This document shows positions 7,387 to 23,207 of a stretch of 24,149 bases of DNA, piece after piece. This stretch comes from a virus (taxonomy: Duplodnaviria > Caudoviricetes). The DNA lies in IMG/VR virus record IMGVR_UViG_3300025018_000524, positions 1 through 24,149 of that record, one strand, 5' to 3'. The stretch's first letter is position 1, and the number at the start of each line of letters is the position of its first letter. Below the pieces are notes generated by a model that saw only the letters and a list, made by a program, of their open reading frames with translations, made no database searches and was not told the origin of the DNA. A program made the position numbers and the translations under genes.

Positions 7387-10317
7387 ATGTCAAAAAACAA
7401 CAAAAACAAACAAAAAAAATCAGTTAAACCTCAAGTAGTCGAGGAAAAGAAAACTCCCAAAGCAGAAGCAAAGAAAGAGAGAAAAGAGGTTAATATCTCT
7501 CGGATTATTGATGAATATAACCAAGACTTTGACGCCCTTTCAACCATCCACGATGAGTTCACAGCTAAGGAAAAAGTACTCATGGGTGTTAGGGTTGATA
7601 AGATCACTAAGGGTTCAACTAAGTCACAAATTGTAGACCCGACACTTCAGACGGCAGTCCTTAAGCAAAACAACGAAACAATGGCGCAAATGCCAACGGG
7701 CAAGGTAAAAGCCTATCTGGGGGATGAGGGTAAGTCTTTACTTATGAATCTCTTACTTGAGAATCACATACTGCCCAACGCTAATACACAATTTGATATT
7801 TACACTAAGTTTTGGTTGCTCTCGCTTTATCGTAAGGTATACGGCTCATTTGGGGTACTAGTCGATTACGTTCAATCCGATCAGTACACTGGTGCAGACT
7901 TTACCCTTATTCCAGCACGATCACTCGTGCCTCAAAAAGGTAGATACACTGTCAATTCATGTGACTACATCAGTGTCCGCTCGGTTGTTAGCAAGAAGTG
8001 GTTGCTCGACAGAGATACAAAGTATTGGAAGAACATTGACAAGTTAATTACTGATGCACCAGAGGCTAAACCAGACACAGACTATCAGACATTCATCGAA
8101 GAAAAGTACTCAACAGACTCTACCTCTGGCTCATCAAGCAAAAAGGATGAGTTTGAGCTAATCACTCGTTACTACAAAGACCGCTGGATCACCTTTAGCA
8201 AAGACATGAAGTTAATTCTAAGAGACATAGACAACCCCCATAAAAACGGTGAGATTCCTATTGTTATTGCCCACTCCTACCCACTGCTACATCGCTTCTT
8301 TGGTTTGGGTGAGTTTGAGAGGGGTATGGTCTTGCACAAAGCGCAATCATCTCTCGTCAATCTCTACATGGATGGTGTGAAAATGAGTATCTTCCCTCCA
8401 CTTAAATTAGATCCTAAAAACCTAGTCATGGAAACAATCAAGCGAGATCCTGGAGCTATGTGGTTTGTTAAGGGTGGCAACATGGGTGCAATCGACCAAA
8501 TGCAGATCAGCCCTCAAGGACTCAATACATTTCAATCTACTTATGCTTTCTTAAAGGGTGCGATGTTAACCCTCACCAACACAACTGACACCTCGATTAG
8601 CTCTAACACCGATCCAGGACTTGGTAAAAGCCAAAGATACTCAGAACCAGTGCTAACTCCTACGGGTTGGGTAACAATGGGAGAGTTACAGGTTGGGGAC
8701 AAAGTTATTGATGATGCTGGTAAGTCAGCAGAAGTGCTTGAGATACACGAACAAGGCAAGATCGACTCATACGATGTGTACTTCTCTGATGGCACAAAAA
8801 CAAACTGCTCTCTAGACCATTTGTGGACTGTAACCAATAAAAGAAACCACGCTAAAAAAGAAGATAAAACACTAGCTCAAATGTTAGAAACTGGACTCTT
8901 TAGAGACGCTTACGACAAGAGATATGAAAAAACTAATAAAAGCTACTACTACAGCGTAGATCTAGTAGCACCGGTTGAGATGGAAGCAAAGGAATTACCA
9001 ATAGATCCATATTTGATGGGGTTGTTACTTGGAGACGGTGGTTTTAGTGAAGATCGACAGACTATAAGCTTTACCAACTCAAAAGAAGATATTAAAGATG
9101 CTGTTAGAGAGTTACTACCAGTTGGAGACAGACTCGTTAGTAAGGGTAAGAGAGCCAATGAGTTTAGGATTTATGGAAAAGTTGTTGACTCACTTGAGGA
9201 ATACGGACTTAAAGGGCATCTATCAAAAGAAAAATGGATCCCAGAAGATTATCTCTTTAACTCACTAGAAAACAGACAAAGACTCTTTCAAGGATTGATT
9301 GACACTGACGGCTACCACGCCACAGAAACTTGTATCGAGTACTGTACAACCAGTGAAAAACTAGCTCAAGACTTCTTAGAATTATCTAGGTCACTTGGCT
9401 ACTACACCTCTATGGTTGTTGGTGTTAGTAGTGCTGTGTATAGGGGTGAGCTAAAAAAGTACGGAAATAAGTACCGCATCTACATTAATGCCAAGAAGCG
9501 CAAAAACATCATTGCTATTCAGAAATCAGAGCCAGAGGAAAGCAGGTGCTTGTTCGTAGACACTCCAAACCATTTATATGTAACTAATGGCTACACGCTA
9601 ACCCACAACACCCCGCAAGCACTCAAGATGCAACAGATGACTCAACAAATGAGATCTGGTTTTGACCGCAAGATGATGGATATAGCCATTGAAGGTATCT
9701 ACAACAAGATGATTGATGTAATGCTGGCTCGTCAAGAGAAGCCAATTAAATTGAAGTTTATGCAGGGTGAAGTTGAGCAGATCAAGAAACGCTATCCCGA
9801 TGTTCAAGAGTTATTAAAGGGCGACAAGGGTGAGCTAGTTATCAAGCCTACGGATATCACTGACACAAAATACAGATTCAACATCGACACAGGTTCAACC
9901 GTTCAAAAAGATCAAGCACTAGAGAATGAGACACTTACATCTCTACTTGAGTTAATTTTCAAGATCCCAGGCGCACCAGAGCAAATCCAAGCTACGGGAA
10001 CAATAACAGTAGGCAATCAAACGATCAACTTCGCCGAGATCATGAAGCAATGGGTCATTACCTCAGGTATCCATGATTGGGACAAGATTATCGAGGATGC
10101 AAAAGAGATGGGAATTGAGGAAGGGATGATGCCCAATCAACAGGAAATGATGCCCCCAATGCCGCAGGGTATGCCACCCATGGACCCCACGATGGGACAA
10201 GGTATGCCACAGGGTATGCCTATGCAACAACCACAAGCGTCTCAGTATCAACCCACAGGGAATCAAGAAGTAGATCAAATAATGCAGGAGATCATAAATG
10301 GAAACCGCATTGCATGA
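7387..10317 (+). CDS. Portal protein with intein (976-aa precursor, 649 aa spliced)
   Basis: Lies between terL and scaffold/MCP. NPHKNGEIP..HRFFGLG and PGAMW are podovirus-portal-like segments. M/P/Q-rich tail. Confidence 0.85.
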   Translation: MSKNNKNKQKKSVKPQVVEEKKTPKAEAKKERKEVNISRIIDEYNQDFDALSTIHDEFTAKEKVLMGVRVDKITKGSTKSQIVDPTLQTAVLKQNNETMAQMPTGKVKAYLGDEGKSLLMNLLLENHILPNANTQFDIYTKFWLLSLYRKVYGSFGVLVDYVQSDQYTGADFTLIPARSLVPQKGRYTVNSCDYISVRSVVSKKWLLDRDTKYWKNIDKLITDAPEAKPDTDYQTFIEEKYSTDSTSGSSSKKDEFELITRYYKDRWITFSKDMKLILRDIDNPHKNGEIPIVIAHSYPLLHRFFGLGEFERGMVLHKAQSSLVNLYMDGVKMSIFPPLKLDPKNLVMETIKRDPGAMWFVKGGNMGAIDQMQISPQGLNTFQSTYAFLKGAMLTLTNTTDTSISSNTDPGLGKSQRYSEPVLTPTGWVTMGELQVGDKVIDDAGKSAEVLEIHEQGKIDSYDVYFSDGTKTNCSLDHLWTVTNKRNHAKKEDKTLAQMLETGLFRDAYDKRYEKTNKSYYYSVDLVAPVEMEAKELPIDPYLMGLLLGDGGFSEDRQTISFTNSKEDIKDAVRELLPVGDRLVSKGKRANEFRIYGKVVDSLEEYGLKGHLSKEKWIPEDYLFNSLENRQRLFQGLIDTDGYHATETCIEYCTTSEKLAQDFLELSRSLGYYTSMVVGVSSAVYRGELKKYGNKYRIYINAKKRKNIIAIQKSEPEESRCLFVDTPNHLYVTNGYTLTHNTPQALKMQQMTQQMRSGFDRKMMDIAIEGIYNKMIDVMLARQEKPIKLKFMQGEVEQIKKRYPDVQELLKGDKGELVIKPTDITDTKYRFNIDTGSTVQKDQALENETLTSLLELIFKIPGAPEQIQATGTITVGNQTINFAEIMKQWVITSGIHDWDKIIEDAKEMGIEEGMMPNQQEMMPPMPQGMPPMDPTMGQGMPQGMPMQQPQASQYQPTGNQEVDQIMQEIINGNRIA
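8629..9609 (+). mobile_element. Intein (327 aa) with LAGLIDADG homing endonuclease and class 3 WCT signature
   Basis: Block A SQRYSEPVLTPTGW, block B DHLW, LAGLIDADG motifs LMGLLLGDG and FQGLIDTDG, block F SRCLFV, block G LTHN followed by +1 Thr. Confidence 0.93.
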
Positions 10318-11753: not shown

Positions 11754-12641
11754 ATGTCACAATCGACAGCAAAAACAACTTTCCAAGCTATCGGAAATCG
11801 TGAGGACTTAACCGACGTGATCACAATGATCTCGCCAACCGAGACTCCTTTTTTCTCTCGCTTCGGAAAGACAAAAGCAAGTGCAGTTCTTCATGAATGG
11901 CAAACAGACAGTTTGGCTAACGCCGCTGACAACGCCAACATTGAGGCTGCAGACTACTCTTTCACTAGACCAGCCAGTCGTTCACGACTGACCAACTCAG
12001 TGCAGTACTTCATGACCCCAGTTGAGGTGTCTGATCTACAACGCTTGGTTGATACCGCAGGCCTTGAGGATGAGTTCGCGTACCAACTTGCCAAAAAGAT
12101 GAAGGAACACGCTCGAGACATCGAGTATGCCCTCGTCACTGGTACTGGTAACACAGGTGCATCAGGCACAGCACGACGTCTTAAAGGCGTTCTCGCTTGG
12201 CTGACCACAACTGTAACGACCGGTACTGGTACAGGCAGTGAAGCTCTCACAGAAGATATGTTCAACGACACGCTCGAGGACATCTGGGATGAGGGTGGTA
12301 TGCCCGACTATGCCTATGCAAATGGTGGACAGAAACGCGCTATCAGTGACTTCACTGGTGGAACGACAAAGAACACCGATGCAGAGGACAAAGTCGTGTA
12401 CAAAGGTGTAGACGTTTATGATTCTGACTTCGGTCGAATCAAAATCGTACCTCACCGCCACATGACTTCATCTGTGGTTGCAATTCTACAGAATGATCTG
12501 TGGAAAGTCGCAACCGTTGCTGGCACACGAAAGCAAGATGTAGCTAAGATCGGCTCCGCAACTCGCGCAGTCATCGAAACCTACCTCACGCTCGAATCCA
12601 GAAACGAAGCAGGAAGTGGAAAAATTACTCAATTAAGTTAA
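11754..12641 (+). CDS. Major capsid protein, SU10/DUF5309-like
   Basis: GNREDLTDVI..ISPTETPF, HEWQTDSL, RDIEYAL and YDSDFG. Confidence 0.9.
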   Translation: MSQSTAKTTFQAIGNREDLTDVITMISPTETPFFSRFGKTKASAVLHEWQTDSLANAADNANIEAADYSFTRPASRSRLTNSVQYFMTPVEVSDLQRLVDTAGLEDEFAYQLAKKMKEHARDIEYALVTGTGNTGASGTARRLKGVLAWLTTTVTTGTGTGSEALTEDMFNDTLEDIWDEGGMPDYAYANGGQKRAISDFTGGTTKNTDAEDKVVYKGVDVYDSDFGRIKIVPHRHMTSSVVAILQNDLWKVATVAGTRKQDVAKIGSATRAVIETYLTLESRNEAGSGKITQLS

Positions 12642-13428: not shown

Positions 13429-13743
13429 ATGTTACCCAAAAATCAATCAGCATTTGACGCATCAATCCGAAAACTAGCCGATGAGATAAATACCAAAAGA
13501 CAGTTGGAGATCAATCAGATCTATTCAGGCAAGAACGAGTTTGATGAGTATGTCGGTTATGCCCGAGAACATGGCGTGTTTGAAAAGGGTAATAAAAGCA
13601 AATCAATGCGAAAGATTGCTTCATTCCCCGTAGAGGTCGATCAATTCTTCACGAAGGTGTACGGGGACAATTATTACAAAGACCCCGATTTTTTCAAGAA
13701 ATATCACAATGAATGGGCAGTTATAAAAAATAGTAAGTTATGA
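13429..13743 (+). CDS. Hypothetical protein
   Basis: GAGG Shine-Dalgarno before ATG 13429; ATGA overlap with the glycosyltransferase. Confidence 0.75.
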   Translation: MLPKNQSAFDASIRKLADEINTKRQLEINQIYSGKNEFDEYVGYAREHGVFEKGNKSKSMRKIASFPVEVDQFFTKVYGDNYYKDPDFFKKYHNEWAVIKNSKL

Positions 13744-14858
13744 AAAAGTTATTAATCCTCCAGCCAAGAACAGAGGATGGTTGTGGATGGTACAGACTTA
13801 TCCAGTTTGCTAAGCTGGCCAAGAAGAACGATTTAGACGTTCAATTCATAGACGTTTCACTATCAGAGGAAAAACTATCTGAGTCAATCTCACTCGCTGA
13901 TGCTTACCTTCTTAGACTATCAGACCTCGTGGCAATAGAAGTCTTTGAACAGTTTGAGTGGGACAAGATCAACAAACCAATCTTTCTTGACATAGATGAT
14001 AACTACGAGTCAATCGACCCTCTTTCAGACCTCTACAGAGCCTATGGACTTCAAGATGTTCAGCTTCAAGATGGTACATATCTATGGAAAGATGGGGTTA
14101 ATTTAGACGTTAAGAAAAACACCAAGAGGTTGGCTAGGTTCAGAACAATTCTAAAAAAGGCTACGATGGTTTGCGTCACGACCTTTGAACTGAGAAACTA
14201 CGCAAACAAATATAATAAAAATGTAGTGATAATACCCAATGCGATTGACTTTGATATATTCCCCAAAGTAAAAGATGTTAACAAAAACAAGAATGAGGTC
14301 AGGTTGTTGTGGTCGGGCGGTTCTACTCACTTCCCAGACTTACTAGAGATCAGAGATCAATTAGAAAACCTAATGGCTCGCAACCTCAATTTACACCTAT
14401 ACATCCTGGGTGTACCGTTTAATGGAATTATCAAGAATATGCCAAAAGACCGCGTGCATCCTATGGGGTGGGTTAAGCCTGATGGACATGGATATAGACT
14501 GGCTTGCATTGATGCAGATATTGCTATTTGCCCTCTTAAAGACTTCTCATTTAATTACTTCAAGTCGAGTGTTAAATACTACGAAACATCGGCTTTAAGA
14601 GTACCTAATGTCTGTAAGAATATACCGCCATACAAAGATGATATTGCCGATGGTCATAACGGCCTACTCTACTCGACCCCGAATGAGTTTCAGGACAAGG
14701 TACAGTCACTTATTGATGATCCAATCAAAAGAATCCAAATTGGTAATGCCGGATATGAGTATGTGAAGCAACACCGCAAAATTGAGGATATAGCCAAAGA
14801 TTGGGCTACTGTTATTAAGGGAACTATTGAGGCCGTCAATGAAAATAGCACTCGTTAA
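13740..14858 (+). CDS. Glycosyltransferase, GT-B fold (GT4-like)
   Basis: GCGWYR, DIDD, IPNAID, WSGGSTH, FNYFKSSVKYYE and GHNGLL. Confidence 0.88.
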   Translation: MKKLLILQPRTEDGCGWYRLIQFAKLAKKNDLDVQFIDVSLSEEKLSESISLADAYLLRLSDLVAIEVFEQFEWDKINKPIFLDIDDNYESIDPLSDLYRAYGLQDVQLQDGTYLWKDGVNLDVKKNTKRLARFRTILKKATMVCVTTFELRNYANKYNKNVVIIPNAIDFDIFPKVKDVNKNKNEVRLLWSGGSTHFPDLLEIRDQLENLMARNLNLHLYILGVPFNGIIKNMPKDRVHPMGWVKPDGHGYRLACIDADIAICPLKDFSFNYFKSSVKYYETSALRVPNVCKNIPPYKDDIADGHNGLLYSTPNEFQDKVQSLIDDPIKRIQIGNAGYEYVKQHRKIEDIAKDWATVIKGTIEAVNENSTR

Positions 14859-15654
14859 TTGGAACTTAAATAAAGTTGGTGGCTCGCAGTCATTTACCCA
14901 CACCCTGGCTACAGCTTTTGAGCAACTAGGACACAGCGTAACTAAACACGACACTCATTTTGAAGGTGAGGCTGATCTAGTTATTCTCTCTCAACCATCC
15001 CACTGCACTGCGCTGACAAATGCACCCATTATCCAGGTTTCACATTCCTCTTTTGTCCCCCTCGAGAGGTTTACGAATAAATCATCTTATCGAGTCTCAG
15101 TTAGTCAAGAGATTAAACAACTTGAGGAGAAATTGGGTTTTGATAGCGTTGTTATAAATAATCCCATCGATACGAGTATTTTTAAGTTACTAAACCTAAG
15201 AGAGAAGTGTGGAAGGGTTCTGTATATGTCACATGATGGGGCTCTTGCTAGAGAAACAATACAAAGCGCCTGTAGAAAAAAAAGTGTTGATTTTGCAATG
15301 ATAGAAAACTCACACAACATTGCCGAGGATATTCATAGAGCAGATGTTTGTATAGGAATCGGTAGGTGTTTATTGGAAGCTATGGCGTGTGGCAAGAACG
15401 TAATTAGTGGAGATCATAGAAATTGGATGGATTCATTTAAGGGAGCGGGACTCATCGAACCAGATAGATACACCTATCACACAAGAGATAACTTTTCCGG
15501 GAGATTGAGTCCTAGGGAGGTCACTGAACAGATGATTATTGATGCAATAGAAAATTACGACCCAGATCGCGGAATAAAACTATCAAAATTAGTAAAAAGG
15601 ACTCACGATGCCAAAGCAATCGCAAGACAATACCTCAGACTTATATCAAATTAG
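14839..15654 (+). CDS. Glycosyltransferase, GT-B fold (GT4-like)
   Basis: MKIALV..GGSQSF, INNPID and GRCLLEAMACGK. ATG 14839 is the preferred start. Confidence 0.85.
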   Translation: MKIALVNWNLNKVGGSQSFTHTLATAFEQLGHSVTKHDTHFEGEADLVILSQPSHCTALTNAPIIQVSHSSFVPLERFTNKSSYRVSVSQEIKQLEEKLGFDSVVINNPIDTSIFKLLNLREKCGRVLYMSHDGALARETIQSACRKKSVDFAMIENSHNIAEDIHRADVCIGIGRCLLEAMACGKNVISGDHRNWMDSFKGAGLIEPDRYTYHTRDNFSGRLSPREVTEQMIIDAIENYDPDRGIKLSKLVKRTHDAKAIARQYLRLISN

Positions 15655-16246
15655 ATATGAGAAACATCAAAACAAAAAAAGAGATCAATTAGCCTTCTCT
15701 AAAGGTATTCTCAATGCTCCACAACTAAATAAAGACGATTTTGTAGGATTTGAGCGTGTCCTCCAGGCTAGGAGAACACAAAGAACGTTCATTTCTAAGC
15801 CTGTGGAAGCTGAAAAGTTAGATATTCTACTTAAACACGCTTCACTCTGCCCCTCATCTTGTAATAGGCAAGCTATCACTATCAAAATAGTTGAACACAG
15901 GCACGAAAAAGAAATACTTTCGGGGCTATTGGTGGGTGGCGTTGGCTGGTGTCACAGAGCAGATAAATTGTTATTGGTATTTGCACACAAACAAGCCTAC
16001 AAAGCGCCTGGAGAGATCAACTTCATGCCTTATCTAGATGCTGGAGTAGTTATTCAACAGCTCTATTTATCCGCAACGGCACTCAATTTAGGTATAGGCT
16101 ATATCAATCCCAACCTTCGAGAAGAAAATAAGAAATTATTTAAGGATAGATTTAATCCCAATGACCATATATTTTGTGGGACATTAGCTCTTGGGTATTT
16201 TAATTACAAAGCAGAGGAAGCCCCAAAAGACAGATTGACAACATAG
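15608..16246 (+). CDS. Nitroreductase-family (FMN-binding) protein
   Basis: RRTQRTF, PSSCNRQ, LDAGVVIQQLYLSATALNLG and LALGY. Confidence 0.88.
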   Translation: MPKQSQDNTSDLYQIRYEKHQNKKRDQLAFSKGILNAPQLNKDDFVGFERVLQARRTQRTFISKPVEAEKLDILLKHASLCPSSCNRQAITIKIVEHRHEKEILSGLLVGGVGWCHRADKLLLVFAHKQAYKAPGEINFMPYLDAGVVIQQLYLSATALNLGIGYINPNLREENKKLFKDRFNPNDHIFCGTLALGYFNYKAEEAPKDRLTT

Positions 16247-18101: not shown

Positions 18102-21100
18102 ATGGCGTCAACAATCGACCAACTAAAGTCATTGTTCAAAAAAGCCAAAAAGAAAACCCTAGATGCAACCACGATAGACGAAAGAATAGGGCAAGGCTTT
18201 AATAACTTACGTGGCAACTTTAGACAGCAACAGGTACAGGCCTCAAAGAACAGAGCCGACTTCGCCAGACCGTTTCAACAAGGGGCATCTAATGTGGTTG
18301 GCAATTTTCGCGCGATCACAAATCCTCAGACAGGGCAGGATTGGTTTCGCGGATCTCCAAATACTAACATTCCATATCAGGCAATTAACACAGCTTCAAA
18401 GCCTATCCAGTGGGTTGGACAGGGTATTGGTAAAGCCATTGTTGCTCCATTGGAGTCTGCATTTAATACTGTAGAAAACAGAACAGACCAGAGACTAGCA
18501 AATACTTTGAGAAATCAACAGTCTAGGGCGATGAGTGCTGGAAACTTAGACGTAGCGCGAAATAGAGCGAGACTAATTGGAGAAAATCAACAAAGACAAG
18601 CTTCCCGACTCACCTCATTTGGAAATGATATTAACAGTATTAGAAAAACGACGGCGGCTGGCGCACTTGGCGCTGGTCTTTCAGCGTTAGGTGTTGGGGC
18701 AGGGACACCTACTCTTGCGGCGACCGCGGCTCTTTCGGGAGGTATTGGATATGGAGCAACTAAACTTACGGGCGGCACTAATTTGCAAGCTCAGGAAGCA
18801 CTGGGACAAGGAATAGGCAAAGCACCACAATATGCGGGGGTGAATAAAATCACTACGCCAATAATTACCAGGATGCTCAATCCAGTAGCCATAAGAGGTC
18901 TTGGAGAGCGTTTATTTTCCTATGGAACCGCCAACGCATTGGCTAACATTGCTGAAGATTATACTCTTTCTAAGGCCAGTCAAGAAAAAATGACTTCCGG
19001 AGATGTTCTTTCAAGCGCGGGCATCGGTGCAGTTATTGGCGGTGTATCTGGTTCATCCCCAGAGCTTAAACGATTTATGGGTAAGTTTGCCAAGAAGGTA
19101 GGCGGCTCAGTTGATGCTCAAGGATTTATCAGAAATAAAACAGGACAACTCTACGACCCAGGTACAGGCAGATGGGTAAAAGAAACCGCATCAAAGGCTG
19201 TGGAAGCTGTTAAAAACAAGCAAAAACAACTTGTAGAGTTTGTGGGCGGTAATGCCTATGATCCTAGTGAGTTTAATCTAAGATTAAGGAGTGATGGTTT
19301 TGGTATGGATCTAGCTCCAAATGCTCAGAGTAGATTGAGGGTTAACCCAGAGGCAGGATTTGTAAACATGGGCGCACCAGTAGCAGGTATGCCTACGGTT
19401 AAGTTTCAAGAGCCAGCAGTACGAGGTGACATTACCAAGCTACAAAACAACCTCGATGAAGTACTCGGCACTAAATCATTCAATTCCACTGGTAAATGGC
19501 AAGCAGACCTGCCAGCACGGCAGACAGCAAAACAACAACTCCAAGGTTACGCAGATCAAGGCGAACCAGAAGCACGAAAACTCTTGGATTATGTAAACAA
19601 ATTAGAAGATGATATTGCTACAGCACAGATAAGCAACCAAGCTACTACACCAAAGGGAGTGGGAGCTAACCAAAGAGTACCGATTAAAAACCCCGTGGAA
19701 ACTCGTAGTCTCTCGAATCCTCAGGTTCAGGATACAACTCGTTCATTATCCGCATCTCCTCCTCAGTTGGCAGGTAGTCGGGTTCGGGTTCAAAATACTG
19801 CACCACGACTATCCACAAAAATACCAATAAACAGTAAAACAAATACGCAAGTAGTGGATTCCGCTCGTACCAATGTTTCATCAAAGGCTAATCTCTCTGG
19901 CAACCAAGGTGGTCGCATTCAATTGAATACTCTTCAGAATCCCAGGATTCAGGTAATAAATAGTCAGCCACCATTGATAGGGAAAACGCAATTACCAATC
20001 CAATCACCGTTGCGAAGCAGAGTCCCAATAAAAACCGAAGTGCCGGTCTCAGGTGTTCCATTAAACAGTAGTATACCATCACAAAAACAAAGAGGCTTCA
20101 CTTCGTCTGTTCAAGAAGCACCATCAGTTTTTGACCCAGTAAAAGCAGATGTAAGTGGAACATATACCCCAAAACCAAATGACAAACTGATGGGTGAAGC
20201 AAAAGCACTCTTACAAGATGGGGCAAAGATTGACTTCAAGAATACCCAAAACCTCGATCAAAAGGTTGCAGCAACCATTCAAGAAGCTCTCAATCAACAG
20301 AAACTGGGTAACTATGAAGCCGCAGCTAATCTATTTAACAACCTTTCAGAGCAAGGTACTGAATTGGGTCGCAGTGTCCAGGCATTCTCTCTCTTAAAAA
20401 GCATGACTCCAGAAGCAATAGCTTTATCAGTAGCGGGGAAAATAAAGAAATATAACCTAAGTGCTAAAAAACTAATTCCTGAGTTGAATGGTGATCAAAT
20501 GGAGATGATTACTGAACAGGTAAAACTTGCGGACAGCCTGAGGGGTAGAGAGAAGAAAATTGTCCTGCATCAGTTAAAACAAACCCTTGATAGTTTAATC
20601 CCCTCAACACTTGCGGACAAGCTCATCACCACTTGGAAGGCGGGACTCCTTACTTCTTTAAGAACCCACGAAAGAAACTTAGTCGGCAACACAATGCACC
20701 AAATGGGTGAAATAGCAAAAGACTATGTCGCATCTCCAGTAGACCAACTGCTCTCCTTCAAAACAGGACGAAGAACACTCACCGCTACCACTCAGGGACT
20801 CGGTGAGGCAGTAAGTAAGCAGACCAGGCAACAGGCTACCGACCTTGTGAAGCTAGGGTTTGACCCAACTGAACAGATAAATAAGTTTGATATAAAAAGA
20901 GTCACTTGGGGTAATAATAAGTTTGAGCAAGGGTTAAAAATATATACCGATGCGGTCTTTAGGACACTTGGAGCAGCAGATAGACCATTTTATAACGCAG
21001 CACTTGCTCGTTCACTCTACGATCAAGCGGGGGCAGCCGCAATCAACGCTGGTAAAAAGGGTGATGGAACATTTATTACAAACCTGGTCAAAAACCCGAC

Positions 21101-23207
21101 TGAGGAAATGTATAAGATTGCGGTGTCAGATGCCAACATCGCCACGTTCAAAGACAGGACCACCGCTTCAAATGTGGCAAACGCCATCAAAAGATCCTTA
21201 TCTAGTAATGAGCTTGCTAAATTTGCTGGTGAGTTTATTATGCCGTTTACAGGCGTACCATCTTCTATATTTACTCAGTTGAAAAACTATTCACCAATTG
21301 GACTTACTCAAGGAATGATTGACGCAGGGAGGGTATTGGTGGGAGATGTACCACAGCTTCAACGCCAAGCATCACAAGAAATAGGTCGAGGGGTAGTGGG
21401 CACAGCCATCATGGCTCTAGGAGCGTATTTAATGAGCAGGGGACTTGTGACAGGACAGCCCAAGGATCAGGAAGAATCCAGACAGTGGGAGCTAGAGAAT
21501 AAACCTAGAAACTCAATTTATATCGGGGGTAAGTGGAGAAGTCTTAACTCTATTGGTCCAGAAGCATTTATCTTTCTTTCAGGAGCGAAGCTCCAAGAGG
21601 AGATGAATAAACCAGATGGCTCTCTGGGAACGTATGGCGCAAGTCTTGGAAAAGACTTTTTAGATCAGTCTTTTGTAACTGGTATTCAGCAACCAGTCAA
21701 CGCTATTACTGATCCCGCTCGATACGGAAAGTCATACGCCGGTAATGCAATATCGTCGTTTATACCAAACATCATTAAAGACTCATCTAAGGCTTTTGAT
21801 GGAACTGCTCGAGAGGCAAACACGGTCCTTGATTATACAAAGATGAGTGTCCCAGGTTTGCGAAATACGCTTACTGAAAAGAGAGACGTGTTGGGCAATA
21901 TTATCCCTCAAGAACCAACGGGAATAGCCGCTTTTATTGATCTTTTCAACTCTAAGACTCCGCGTGGTAGTGAGCTAGTAGGTGAATTATCCAGGCTCTA
22001 CGGTGAGGGATATGGCGCAACACCTAGTAAGCTGAAAAAAGAGCAGACTATCAACAAAAAGAAATACGTTCTTACTCCAGAGCAACTTAACGCTTATGAG
22101 GCAGGTGTTAGCCAGCCCCTACAGTCTGCTCTTGAAAAATTAATATCATCATCCGCGTACGCAAGTCTTACTGATGAGGAAAAGCAAAAGAAGGTAGATA
22201 AGGTTGTTTTGGATGTTAGAGCTGAATACAAAAAAACTAACGCAGACGAAATTATTGTGGGGGCGAAAGTTCCGGTTAAAAAACCAACCTTCCAACAAAC
22301 TGAAGACCAGCCAAAAAACATCCTCGATAAAGTAGCTCTCGCAGCTCAGGGTATAGGCGTTGATCCGCAGAACACGATCAAAGCTATTTTCACTCAGGAA
22401 GAACTACGAAAAATCGAGGGTAATGCTGTTATTCTTAAACGTCAGGAGTTTTTGAATAAAGAGAACGACCCCAACTTACAACGCGATCACATCATCCCTC
22501 TGGGCCTGGGTGGCGATAACTCAGACGAAAACCTTAAATATGTACCCAAAGACTGGCACGCTGCTAAGACTAAGAATGATAATAGACTGATTCGTGAACT
22601 GCAAAGTGGCAAAATAACCCGTCAAGAAGCCCAAGAGCAAGTGAGAACCTGGATTGAAAACAACCCACACGAAACGTATGTGATGGAATCAGAGCCCACT
22701 AGTGAGTCAGTTAAAACCAATATTACTGAGGGTAGCATTATCAATCGTGAGTTTGAGATTGATAATGGAGTAGATAAGGATGGAGAACCCAAAACCAAGA
22801 CAGTCAAGATCGAAGTGCCAGAATACCCCACCCTTACGGGTCAGGATGAGTTGGATAAGAAACTTAAATCTAGTTATTACAGCAAACTAAACACCGCTAA
22901 AAACAACACACTTAAATTATATGAGGCAGGAGTCATCACCGCAGAACAGGCAGAGGAAATACTAGGTGATCTGGATACCAAGCAAACGAAATCATCGGGC
23001 AAAACAGGCAGAAAACTAAAAATCAAACTCGGCTCTACCCCCACCCTCAAAAAAGTCTCAATTAAAGCACCACAAGTCTCTCAGATGGCTAAAATCAACT
23101 TCAACATCCCCACAGCTCCAAGAGTGCCAGTAAGAAAGACAAGCACGACCAGACCACGAATTAAGCTAAGAGATGCTAGTAAGAAATTATTAAGCGTGGT
23201 AAGATAG
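18102..23207 (+). CDS. Large (1701 aa) probable DNA-ejection / polyvalent protein with C-terminal HNH motif
   Basis: Gly/Ala-rich hydrophobic N-terminal segments, a helical core, an LPD38-like stretch (NSIYIGGKW..SFVTG..SFIP..DVLG), DHIIPLGLGGDNSDENL..WHAAKT and a basic tail. Confidence 0.75.
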   Translation: MASTIDQLKSLFKKAKKKTLDATTIDERIGQGFNNLRGNFRQQQVQASKNRADFARPFQQGASNVVGNFRAITNPQTGQDWFRGSPNTNIPYQAINTASKPIQWVGQGIGKAIVAPLESAFNTVENRTDQRLANTLRNQQSRAMSAGNLDVARNRARLIGENQQRQASRLTSFGNDINSIRKTTAAGALGAGLSALGVGAGTPTLAATAALSGGIGYGATKLTGGTNLQAQEALGQGIGKAPQYAGVNKITTPIITRMLNPVAIRGLGERLFSYGTANALANIAEDYTLSKASQEKMTSGDVLSSAGIGAVIGGVSGSSPELKRFMGKFAKKVGGSVDAQGFIRNKTGQLYDPGTGRWVKETASKAVEAVKNKQKQLVEFVGGNAYDPSEFNLRLRSDGFGMDLAPNAQSRLRVNPEAGFVNMGAPVAGMPTVKFQEPAVRGDITKLQNNLDEVLGTKSFNSTGKWQADLPARQTAKQQLQGYADQGEPEARKLLDYVNKLEDDIATAQISNQATTPKGVGANQRVPIKNPVETRSLSNPQVQDTTRSLSASPPQLAGSRVRVQNTAPRLSTKIPINSKTNTQVVDSARTNVSSKANLSGNQGGRIQLNTLQNPRIQVINSQPPLIGKTQLPIQSPLRSRVPIKTEVPVSGVPLNSSIPSQKQRGFTSSVQEAPSVFDPVKADVSGTYTPKPNDKLMGEAKALLQDGAKIDFKNTQNLDQKVAATIQEALNQQKLGNYEAAANLFNNLSEQGTELGRSVQAFSLLKSMTPEAIALSVAGKIKKYNLSAKKLIPELNGDQMEMITEQVKLADSLRGREKKIVLHQLKQTLDSLIPSTLADKLITTWKAGLLTSLRTHERNLVGNTMHQMGEIAKDYVASPVDQLLSFKTGRRTLTATTQGLGEAVSKQTRQQATDLVKLGFDPTEQINKFDIKRVTWGNNKFEQGLKIYTDAVFRTLGAADRPFYNAALARSLYDQAGAAAINAGKKGDGTFITNLVKNPTEEMYKIAVSDANIATFKDRTTASNVANAIKRSLSSNELAKFAGEFIMPFTGVPSSIFTQLKNYSPIGLTQGMIDAGRVLVGDVPQLQRQASQEIGRGVVGTAIMALGAYLMSRGLVTGQPKDQEESRQWELENKPRNSIYIGGKWRSLNSIGPEAFIFLSGAKLQEEMNKPDGSLGTYGASLGKDFLDQSFVTGIQQPVNAITDPARYGKSYAGNAISSFIPNIIKDSSKAFDGTAREANTVLDYTKMSVPGLRNTLTEKRDVLGNIIPQEPTGIAAFIDLFNSKTPRGSELVGELSRLYGEGYGATPSKLKKEQTINKKKYVLTPEQLNAYEAGVSQPLQSALEKLISSSAYASLTDEEKQKKVDKVVLDVRAEYKKTNADEIIVGAKVPVKKPTFQQTEDQPKNILDKVALAAQGIGVDPQNTIKAIFTQEELRKIEGNAVILKRQEFLNKENDPNLQRDHIIPLGLGGDNSDENLKYVPKDWHAAKTKNDNRLIRELQSGKITRQEAQEQVRTWIENNPHETYVMESEPTSESVKTNITEGSIINREFEIDNGVDKDGEPKTKTVKIEVPEYPTLTGQDELDKKLKSSYYSKLNTAKNNTLKLYEAGVITAEQAEEILGDLDTKQTKSSGKTGRKLKIKLGSTPTLKKVSIKAPQVSQMAKINFNIPTAPRVPVRKTSTTRPRIKLRDASKKLLSVVR
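19684..19881 (-). CDS. Nested antisense small membrane protein 2 (65 aa)
   Basis: MKHWYERNP, hydrophobic LLAYLFYCLLVFLWIVVV, then an acidic tail. The ATG lies 6 nt after the stop of nested ORF 1. Confidence 0.6.
   Translation of the reverse strand: MKHWYERNPLLAYLFYCLLVFLWIVVVQYFEPEPDYLPTEEEMRIMNELYPEPEDSRDYEFPRGF
19888..20061 (-). CDS. Nested antisense small membrane protein 1 (57 aa), probably leaderless
   Basis: MEHLRPALR, hydrophobic FLLGLCFATVIGLVIAFSLSMV, then an acidic tail with CxxxxC. The ATG lies 8 nt after an extended -10. Confidence 0.6.
   Translation of the reverse strand: MEHLRPALRFLLGLCFATVIGLVIAFSLSMVADYLLPESWDSEEYSIECDHLGCQRD
20070..20078 (-). promoter_or_regulatory. Antisense extended -10 promoter inside the giant gene
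   Basis: The minus strand reads TGgTATACT-actgttta-ATG. Confidence 0.6.
23197..23205 (+). promoter_or_regulatory. Putative extended -10 promoter
   Basis: TGgTAAGAT at the end of the giant gene. Confidence 0.4.

Follow-up and report, generated by a model that had tools for sequence, protein, structure and literature searches.

HK97 gp15, Ltp and Sie2009 are small, membrane-bound proteins encoded near entry genes by free-standing genes of long-tailed phages. All three, from HK97, TP-J34 and Tuc2009, respectively, are prophage-encoded blockers of DNA injection (PMC10883804). The short-tailed phage P22 makes SieA, a protein of the inner membrane that prevents P22 itself and its relatives from injecting DNA, with escape mutations in the ejection proteins gp16 and gp20 (PMC10883804). 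SieA proteins are 162–164 aa long with three predicted helices and an FxRYPxEAxxFNK motif, have their own promoter, and fall into diverse sequence types (PMC10883804). Pseudomonas phage Fc02 carries olg1 (gene 10), whose 7.9 kDa product is encoded antisense to a lytic gene that it overlaps; olg1 is separately transcribed and confers exclusion (PMC9936078). Antisense ORFs embedded in annotated genes, with evidence of purifying selection, have been described in P. aeruginosa (PMC8850804), and the EHEC ORF asa is embedded antisense in an annotated gene (PMC6294744).

The window analyzed here is the whole 24,149-nt record of a virus, with its annotated genes on the plus strand. In prokaryotic systems, few fully nested antisense genes have comparative proof of selection. 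The window contains two small ORFs that lie wholly inside a giant gene on the opposite strand, with both frames open, and comparison with relatives indicates that this cassette is real, hidden, and family-wide. We treat the two antisense ORFs as predicted genes on four grounds: their frames are open, they exceed chance, they recur at one position in relatives, and two pairs of relatives bear signs of protein-level selection.

Layout of the nested cassette

The window encodes a terminase, an SU10-type major capsid protein with its adaptor, and a protein with a weak SU10 portal match, so the phage is most likely short-tailed. The probable portal gene (7387–10317, 976 aa) has an internal LAGLIDADG/Hom_end/HNH-like stretch (~385–700) that resembles an intein with a homing endonuclease. 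At 13740–16246, genes for two glycosyltransferases and a nitroreductase are interspersed with virion genes; relatives have larger glycosylation clusters there. Two YopX-family paralogues (810–1172 and 1852–2223) sit on either side of a DNA methyltransferase. The giant gene and the cassette comprise the following features:

18102..23207, plus strand: giant gene, 1701 aa, with a variable N-terminal part, a helical conserved core (~661–1380), and a C-terminal HNH-like stretch
19593..20096, plus strand: sense linker, residues 498–665, without F/W/Y/M/C/H, a module boundary just upstream of the conserved core
20070..20078, minus strand: predicted extended -10 promoter TGGTATACT, 8 nt before the ATG at 20061, in leaderless or near-leaderless geometry
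19888..20061, minus strand: ORF1, 57 aa, with a basic N-terminus, a single hydrophobic helix, and an acidic tail ending in ECDHLGC
19684..19881, minus strand: ORF2, 65 aa, with a single hydrophobic helix and an acidic tail, net charge -9

The core of the giant protein has 316 homologues and a structure model with pLDDT 80. The internal virion protein family phrog_6651 matches 26 of 58 aligned cores (best E = 9e-21; the window's own core, 2.5e-5), the giant protein weakly matches two 'internal virion protein D' records (E = 3e-7), and no solved relative of the core was found by sequence. These remote sequence matches, as distinct from a fold comparison, make a podovirus large internal virion (ejection) protein the probable identity of the giant protein. 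Its HNH-like stretch spans residues ~1455–1507. The homologues P0023, P0024, P0032, P0085, P0109, and P0117 have add-on ADP-ribosyltransferase, peptidase C39, HNH, and SLT domains, which resemble those of polyvalent proteins as described in PMC5512222.

The initial annotation had read the minus strand as TGGTATACT, 8 nt, and an ATG, followed by a 57-aa ORF, 6 nt, and a 65-aa ORF in one frame split by a single TAG, each protein having a basic N-terminus, one helix, and an acidic tail. All of this is borne out: the motif occupies 20078–20070 of the minus strand, the ATG is at 20061, and the gap from the ORF1 stop to ORF2 is 6 nt. Hydropathy over 19 residues is 2.56 for ORF1 and 2.57 for ORF2, with a basic N-flank, and a membrane location is predicted for both. 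The cassette had also been placed outside the wobble-sharing frame occupied by the shadow ORF at 11954–12283, and codon-position pairing agrees, with antisense position 1 opposite sense position 1 and antisense position 2 opposite the sense wobble. The linker, reported as free of F/W/Y/M/C/H over residues 528–659, indeed lacks them, although the run is really 498–665 and extends 30 residues past the cassette. ORF2 is likely translated by re-initiation 6 nt past the ORF1 stop. TAG is an ordinary stop in this genome, ending 5 of its 28 genes; given this usage and the same predicted orientation of both ORFs, read-through of the TAG into a single 125-residue protein was set aside.

Scored with a promoter matrix trained on 15 relatives, with the window excluded from training, the ATG at 20061 ranks first among the window's 757 ATG sites. 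A sigma-70 scan omits the cassette promoter because the -35 element is absent, no -35 match being listed for 20070–20078, and no terminator was listed past ORF2. In a sequencing run that is possibly its source, the cassette stretch lies in one contig at a depth of 50.8, and matching pieces from three further runs show zero differences to it.

Excess over chance and recurrence in relatives

The cassette frame is the most stop-rich over the giant gene, with 132 stops against 84 and 58 in the other two frames, and its longest open stretches there are ORF1 and ORF2 (70 and 68 codons). Because the antisense middle base is the sense wobble base, synonymous codon choice in the sense gene determines how hydrophobic the antisense protein is, and a clean test with the sense protein fixed is therefore possible. 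Under synonymous redraw, 10.55 ± 2.4 stops were expected across the cassette and 2 were observed (1 of 20,000 draws, P = 5e-5). Both helices together appeared in 1 of 20,000 draws, and 22 acidic residues were seen against 11.9 expected (P = 5.5e-4). Each ORF alone passes the joint test of stops, hydropathy, and acidity, with 0 of 20,000 draws in each case. For ORF2, no stops occur against 4.9 expected and 13 D/E residues against 5.2 expected; the acidity of ORF1 taken alone is not significant (P = 0.17). Codon permutation within the region gave P = 0.001 for stops. Seven of 54 sliding control windows reached a joint P < 0.02, four overlapping the cassette and three outside it, the latter with weaker hydropathy and 1–2 stops. 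Sense wobble bases are A at 14 of 23 and 13 of 19 codons under the two helices and mostly T (12 of 25 and 17 of 36) under the acidic tails. The antisense open length and composition exceed what the sense protein forces.

The reverse demand is visible in the linker. S, P, Q, R, N, and T make up a fraction of 0.59, compared with 0.47 implied by the antisense proteins and 0.35 elsewhere, and F/W/Y/M/C/H are not seen, against an implied 0.07. The antisense proteins account for much of the S/P/Q/R/N/T bias, not for the total absence of F/W/Y/M/C/H. This absence goes beyond the antisense demand, which argues that the sense frame, too, is maintained as a disordered linker.

ORF1 belongs to a small family. 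The nested ORF of locus L020 matches it pairwise at E = 8e-7, P0124 (a called 56-aa gene) is 48% identical to it (E = 6.7e-5), and ECDH[FL]GC is common to all three. Read through the overlap, this motif forces sense hexapeptides such as NQSGRI (NQxGRI). Across 120 homologous proteins (165,806 positions), the implied hexapeptides were counted 12 times, with 10 instances at the cassette site, about 96–113 residues before the core. Because they recur at this distance, nine further relatives, known from protein only, probably carry ORF1-type genes. P0122 and P0123 were discarded as ORF1 homologues because they are repeat proteins. Searches of PHROGs, Pfam, a word-index protein search, and the ESM Atlas gave no family or close relative of ORF1 or ORF2, and ECDH-motif DNA patterns in viral contigs returned either zero stretches or 13 with only L020's own record relevant. 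No ORF2 homologue was found, and the case for ORF2 is built on its intrinsic statistics. An ORF of L031 looks like ORF2 by eye and was not counted (pairwise E = 0.10).

Three collection scans yielded 115 loci; 44 were removed as duplicates or because they had no anchoring part of the core, and 71 were kept, including the window's own contig and four loci with fewer than 110 codons upstream. Counts over these 71 leave out 12 distant loci (L160–L171) from a second viral scan, whose 38 loci were mostly on contigs already included, and a locus search with a single protein as query gave no matches. A same-frame, ATG-led hydrophobic ORF of at least 25 aa begins 40–67 codons before the core anchor at 19 of the 71 loci, and elsewhere in the cassette frame only three such ORFs occur besides ORF2. 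L066 (24 aa) and L090 (GTG start) raise the count to 21 of 71, window included. The consensus before the 19 starts is GTGnTATAnT followed by 8 nt, with TTGACA-like -35 boxes in several. Three of its bases, T-17, T-14, and A-11, coincide with sense wobble positions, and 16, 14, and 14 of the 19, respectively, retain them. An untrained textbook motif is matched at six or more of eight positions with spacer 8 by 14 of 43 same-frame site ATGs versus 22 of 2679 elsewhere, and 14 sites have an 8-nt spacer, with every other spacer from 3 to 13 found at most once; the site window for both counts was chosen post hoc. In a promoter-ATG scan of whole records, the nested site scored highest in three of five cassette-bearing virus records and fell below the cut-off in the other two.

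Two gap-free pairs of relatives bear on selection. Between L051 and L053, sense wobble positions differ at 12 of 55 cassette codons versus 167 of 300 in the core (P = 3e-6), and antisense wobble positions at 17 of 55 versus 18 of 300. Between L031 and L092, the sense wobble differs at 0 of 48 cassette codons versus 47 of 300 in the core and the antisense wobble at 4 of 48 versus 3 of 300, with 46 of 47 residues of the antisense protein kept. Sense-wobble change is thus suppressed and antisense-wobble change raised, which indicates that the antisense protein is under purifying selection in these two relative pairs, as distinct from the window's own ORFs. More distant pairs have the same order of wobble differences, but they were aligned on the antisense protein and are therefore biased.

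These comparisons address what the initial annotation had proposed, namely dual coding, to be examined by selection in both frames and by conservation in homologues. The inverted wobble pattern over the cassette appears in both gap-free pairs, and 21 of 71 loci carry a same-frame small membrane ORF at the site, mostly 8 nt behind an extended -10. Together with the null models and the promoter bases at sense-synonymous sites, they support dual coding. The proposed two-gene operon is present in the window, but this form is rare: a second ORF was seen among relatives only in L077, and most have one gene. The cassette looks like an exchangeable in-frame module and not only, as had been proposed, like an overprint on a tolerant linker that was already there.

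Several observations bear on how this site evolves. P0002 has a core 71% identical to that of the window and shares the module before the linker, yet the linker between the same landmarks is ~46 residues long versus 163 in the window (~117 shorter). Three cassette-free pairs with near-identical cores diverge 52–76 codons before the anchor. Because of the shorter linker and the divergence of near-identical relatives at this point, we take the site to be a module boundary. The cassette is scattered on the core tree, which left out seven loci with short cores or flanks, occurring in 20 of 64 rows with 12 changes, at least nine of them forced by strong branches. Comparison of these loci suggests that the cassette behaves like an exchangeable in-frame moron. 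The nested proteins are diverse (24–80 aa, one or two helices, mean column identity 18%), and many relatives' proteins have no acidic tail, so one mechanism may not cover all. Antisense hydrophobic stretches in L007–L009, L025, L055, and L058 were not counted, as they have no promoter-led start. L085:5041, on the minus strand, is an 81-aa hydrophobic ORF with a promoter-like site at the same position in the wobble-sharing frame; it is possibly another type of cassette, or else a shadow ORF that arose by chance.

Nine loci also have free-standing small genes on the minus strand, mostly with a hydrophobic helix, 0.9–1.9 kb upstream of the giant gene. They have a similar extended -10 promoter 6–9 nt before the ATG, the L020 gene has a CAP domain, and they are candidate exclusion morons:

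L012:2532, L020:2258, L021:1548, L026:2287, L029:2526, L034:1381, L036:2188, L078:2931, and L085:3651, minus strand: free-standing small genes

Possible host, predicted target, and rival explanations

No tyrosine integrase was found in eight cassette-bearing records, and no serine recombinase or HTH_3 repressor in five of them, of which two have a completeness of 90% or more. One of the eight is classified as a provirus, and the 353,668-nt contig L084, with the same sequence as L020, includes a cassette-bearing phage region that is probably a prophage; an integrase is present in one cassette-free relative. Expression of the cassette may take place in a prophage or, alternatively, in the early phase of a lytic infection. 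The host is possibly a member of the Patescibacteria, on weak grounds: L047, in which the cassette is unassessable, lies in a 1.2-Mb genome bin of a phylum whose genomes are mostly 0.7–1.2 Mb, and the bins of L048 and L049 carry other labels. Across 31 genomes of that bin's phylum, the sole phylum scanned, the TGnTAyAnT-8 nt-ATG pattern occurred 201 times at spacer 8 versus 130 at spacer 11, the enrichment being seen in some of the genomes. G013, a small genome of G001's phylum, has 32 matches at spacer 8 versus 7 at spacer 11. The pattern suggests that leaderless genes are common in some small genomes of G001's phylum, and a literature search on the point listed no paper.

The complex model of ORF1 with the giant core scored 0.73, versus 0.00 for the best of three controls, which were unrelated proteins not matched for membrane character, and the score drops to 0.00 when chain 1 is replaced. 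Of 157 solved pairs, 116 reach the score mark, as do 2 of 215 mismatched ones; these counts apply here only approximately. Runs agree in at least 77% of contacts, and the partner pLDDT is at least 71. The predicted interface is enriched in conserved positions, with 20 of 67 residues at least 90% conserved versus 64 of 653 elsewhere, and the core surface includes the invariant WKAGLL (845–850) and PFTGVP (1048–1053). ORF1 is thus predicted to bind the conserved core of the giant protein, with the caveat that a conserved groove normally filled by another ejection protein or by another copy could admit any hydrophobic helix. The putative link to a cognate ejection protein made in the initial annotation gains support from this ORF1–core model. 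Membrane topology is predicted by the positive-inside rule. The basic N-flank and acidic tail suggest that ORF1 is oriented N-in and C-out, in which case both cysteines would be outside.

We lean, somewhat beyond an even chance, towards the cassette being a superinfection-exclusion module aimed at the ejection protein encoded by its own host gene and excluding related phages. Transcription by the host housekeeping RNA polymerase would start from the extended -10, yield a leaderless mRNA, and be uncoupled from the phage late program. ORF1, and ORF2 through re-initiation, would insert into the cytoplasmic membrane, the N-terminus facing the cell interior and the acidic tail the exterior, where the ORF1 helix and CDHxGC tail are predicted to bind the ejection-protein core of an incoming related phage. 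Bound ORF1 would prevent assembly of the DNA conduit, the action proposed for P22 SieA, and the cost in the sense frame would be an open, disordered linker. An optional membrane protein, driven by a host promoter and predicted to act on the conduit core, makes SieA-like exclusion the best reading, and the patchy distribution of the cassette (20 of 64 rows, 12 changes) fits an accessory function. For the broader proposition that a family-wide, fixed linker slot holds exchangeable antisense inhibitors binding the adjoining core, with the linker's odd composition as the footprint of an entry-blocking gene that annotation pipelines are unable to call, we judge the chances to be evenly balanced.

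Predicted binding to conserved surfaces of the core and a location within its gene would also suit proteins that act on the phage's own new ejection protein, either as an antidote or chaperone sparing the producer's membrane or as an accessory part that seats the conduit. This we consider unlikely: the cassette was not found in 50 of 71 loci and is scattered on the tree, unlike a needed assembly part, and an opposite-strand, host-type promoter would not be timed with the late genes. We give a similarly low probability to proteins that exclude other phages or alter the host surface by way of host membrane proteins such as receptors, transporters, or pili. The complex model passes with the cognate core and falls to 0.00 on chain 1 replacement, and the site is fixed beside the core, both of which count against a host target; in its favor are the diversity of the nested proteins, the other free-standing antisense membrane genes nearby, one with a CAP domain, and occlusion of a host factor raised as an alternative for SieA (PMC10883804).

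The working product could instead be an antisense RNA that damps late-gene expression, with the ORFs secondary. No other element is conserved as well as the promoter, and its transcript could pair with late mRNA. Against this, substitutions concentrate at the antisense wobble and yet preserve the antisense protein (L031/L092 retain 46 of 47 residues), which RNA pairing would not demand; nor would a constraint on the RNA leave that wobble free to change. The RNA folds no better than shuffles (z = +1.52), and Rfam gave no match, which leaves this account improbable; an antisense RNA effect may still accompany cassette transcription as a side effect. Least probable is that the A-rich, S/P/Q/T/K-rich linker yields hydrophobic antisense frames by chance. 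Such stretches do arise from A-rich sense DNA in L007–L009, L055, and L058, there with no promoter-led ORF, but nulls with the sense protein fixed still fail to reproduce the cassette. Chance frames also sit poorly with the fixed promoter spacing, the common ECDH[FL]GC family, and the inverted wobble patterns, and the shadow-ORF account is already largely refuted.

Implications and comparison with known systems

If the binding model is true, the 57 residues of ORF1 amount to an inhibitor whose predicted site lies on the ejection protein, and the way in which SieA-type proteins block the DNA conduit could be examined directly with purified components. With about twenty natural variants at one position, the locus lends itself to studies of the origin and exchange of overlaps. 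Low-complexity linkers of giant virion proteins can mark hidden genes, recognizable by the sense protein alone (NQxGRI), so the number of exclusion genes in uncultured phages is probably underestimated. A literature search, with most subscription papers and supplements outside its scope, found no report of such cassettes inside ejection genes.

The giant protein resembles ejection proteins of the T7 gp16 or internal virion protein D type by weak sequence matches. Like P22 SieA, the cassette would supply a putative membrane protein with its own predicted promoter and diverse sequences in what is most likely a short-tailed phage (PMC10883804). SieA is a separate, prophage-expressed gene, whereas the cassette lies inside the ejection gene on the opposite strand; the nested proteins are 24–80 aa with one or two helices and lack the FxRYPxEAxxFNK motif as given in that source (PMC10883804). 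ORF1 and ORF2 fall outside the P22 SieA family, having 57 and 65 aa, one helix each, no such motif, and no PHROG or Pfam match. The free-standing HK97 gp15, Ltp, and Sie2009 differ from the cassette, which is nested and whose ORFs have no family match in PHROGs or Pfam.

With Fc02 olg1, the cassette shares a small ORF opposite to and overlapping another gene (PMC9936078). Unlike the cassette, olg1 lies in a lysis-lysogeny control region, has an SD sequence, and overlaps a gene that is not for a virion protein; binding between the overlapping products, as modeled here for ORF1 and the core, is not among the predictions reported in the parts of that work consulted (PMC9936078). The P. aeruginosa and EHEC asa examples, as described in PMC8850804 and PMC6294744, are chromosomal, whereas here one site hosts divergent or unrelated small membrane genes across a phage family. 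Gain and loss of nested genes at one site also sets the locus apart from these two cases. The cassette is thus built like a nested antisense gene and, as predicted from the complex model and by analogy, would work like an injection-blocking exclusion gene.
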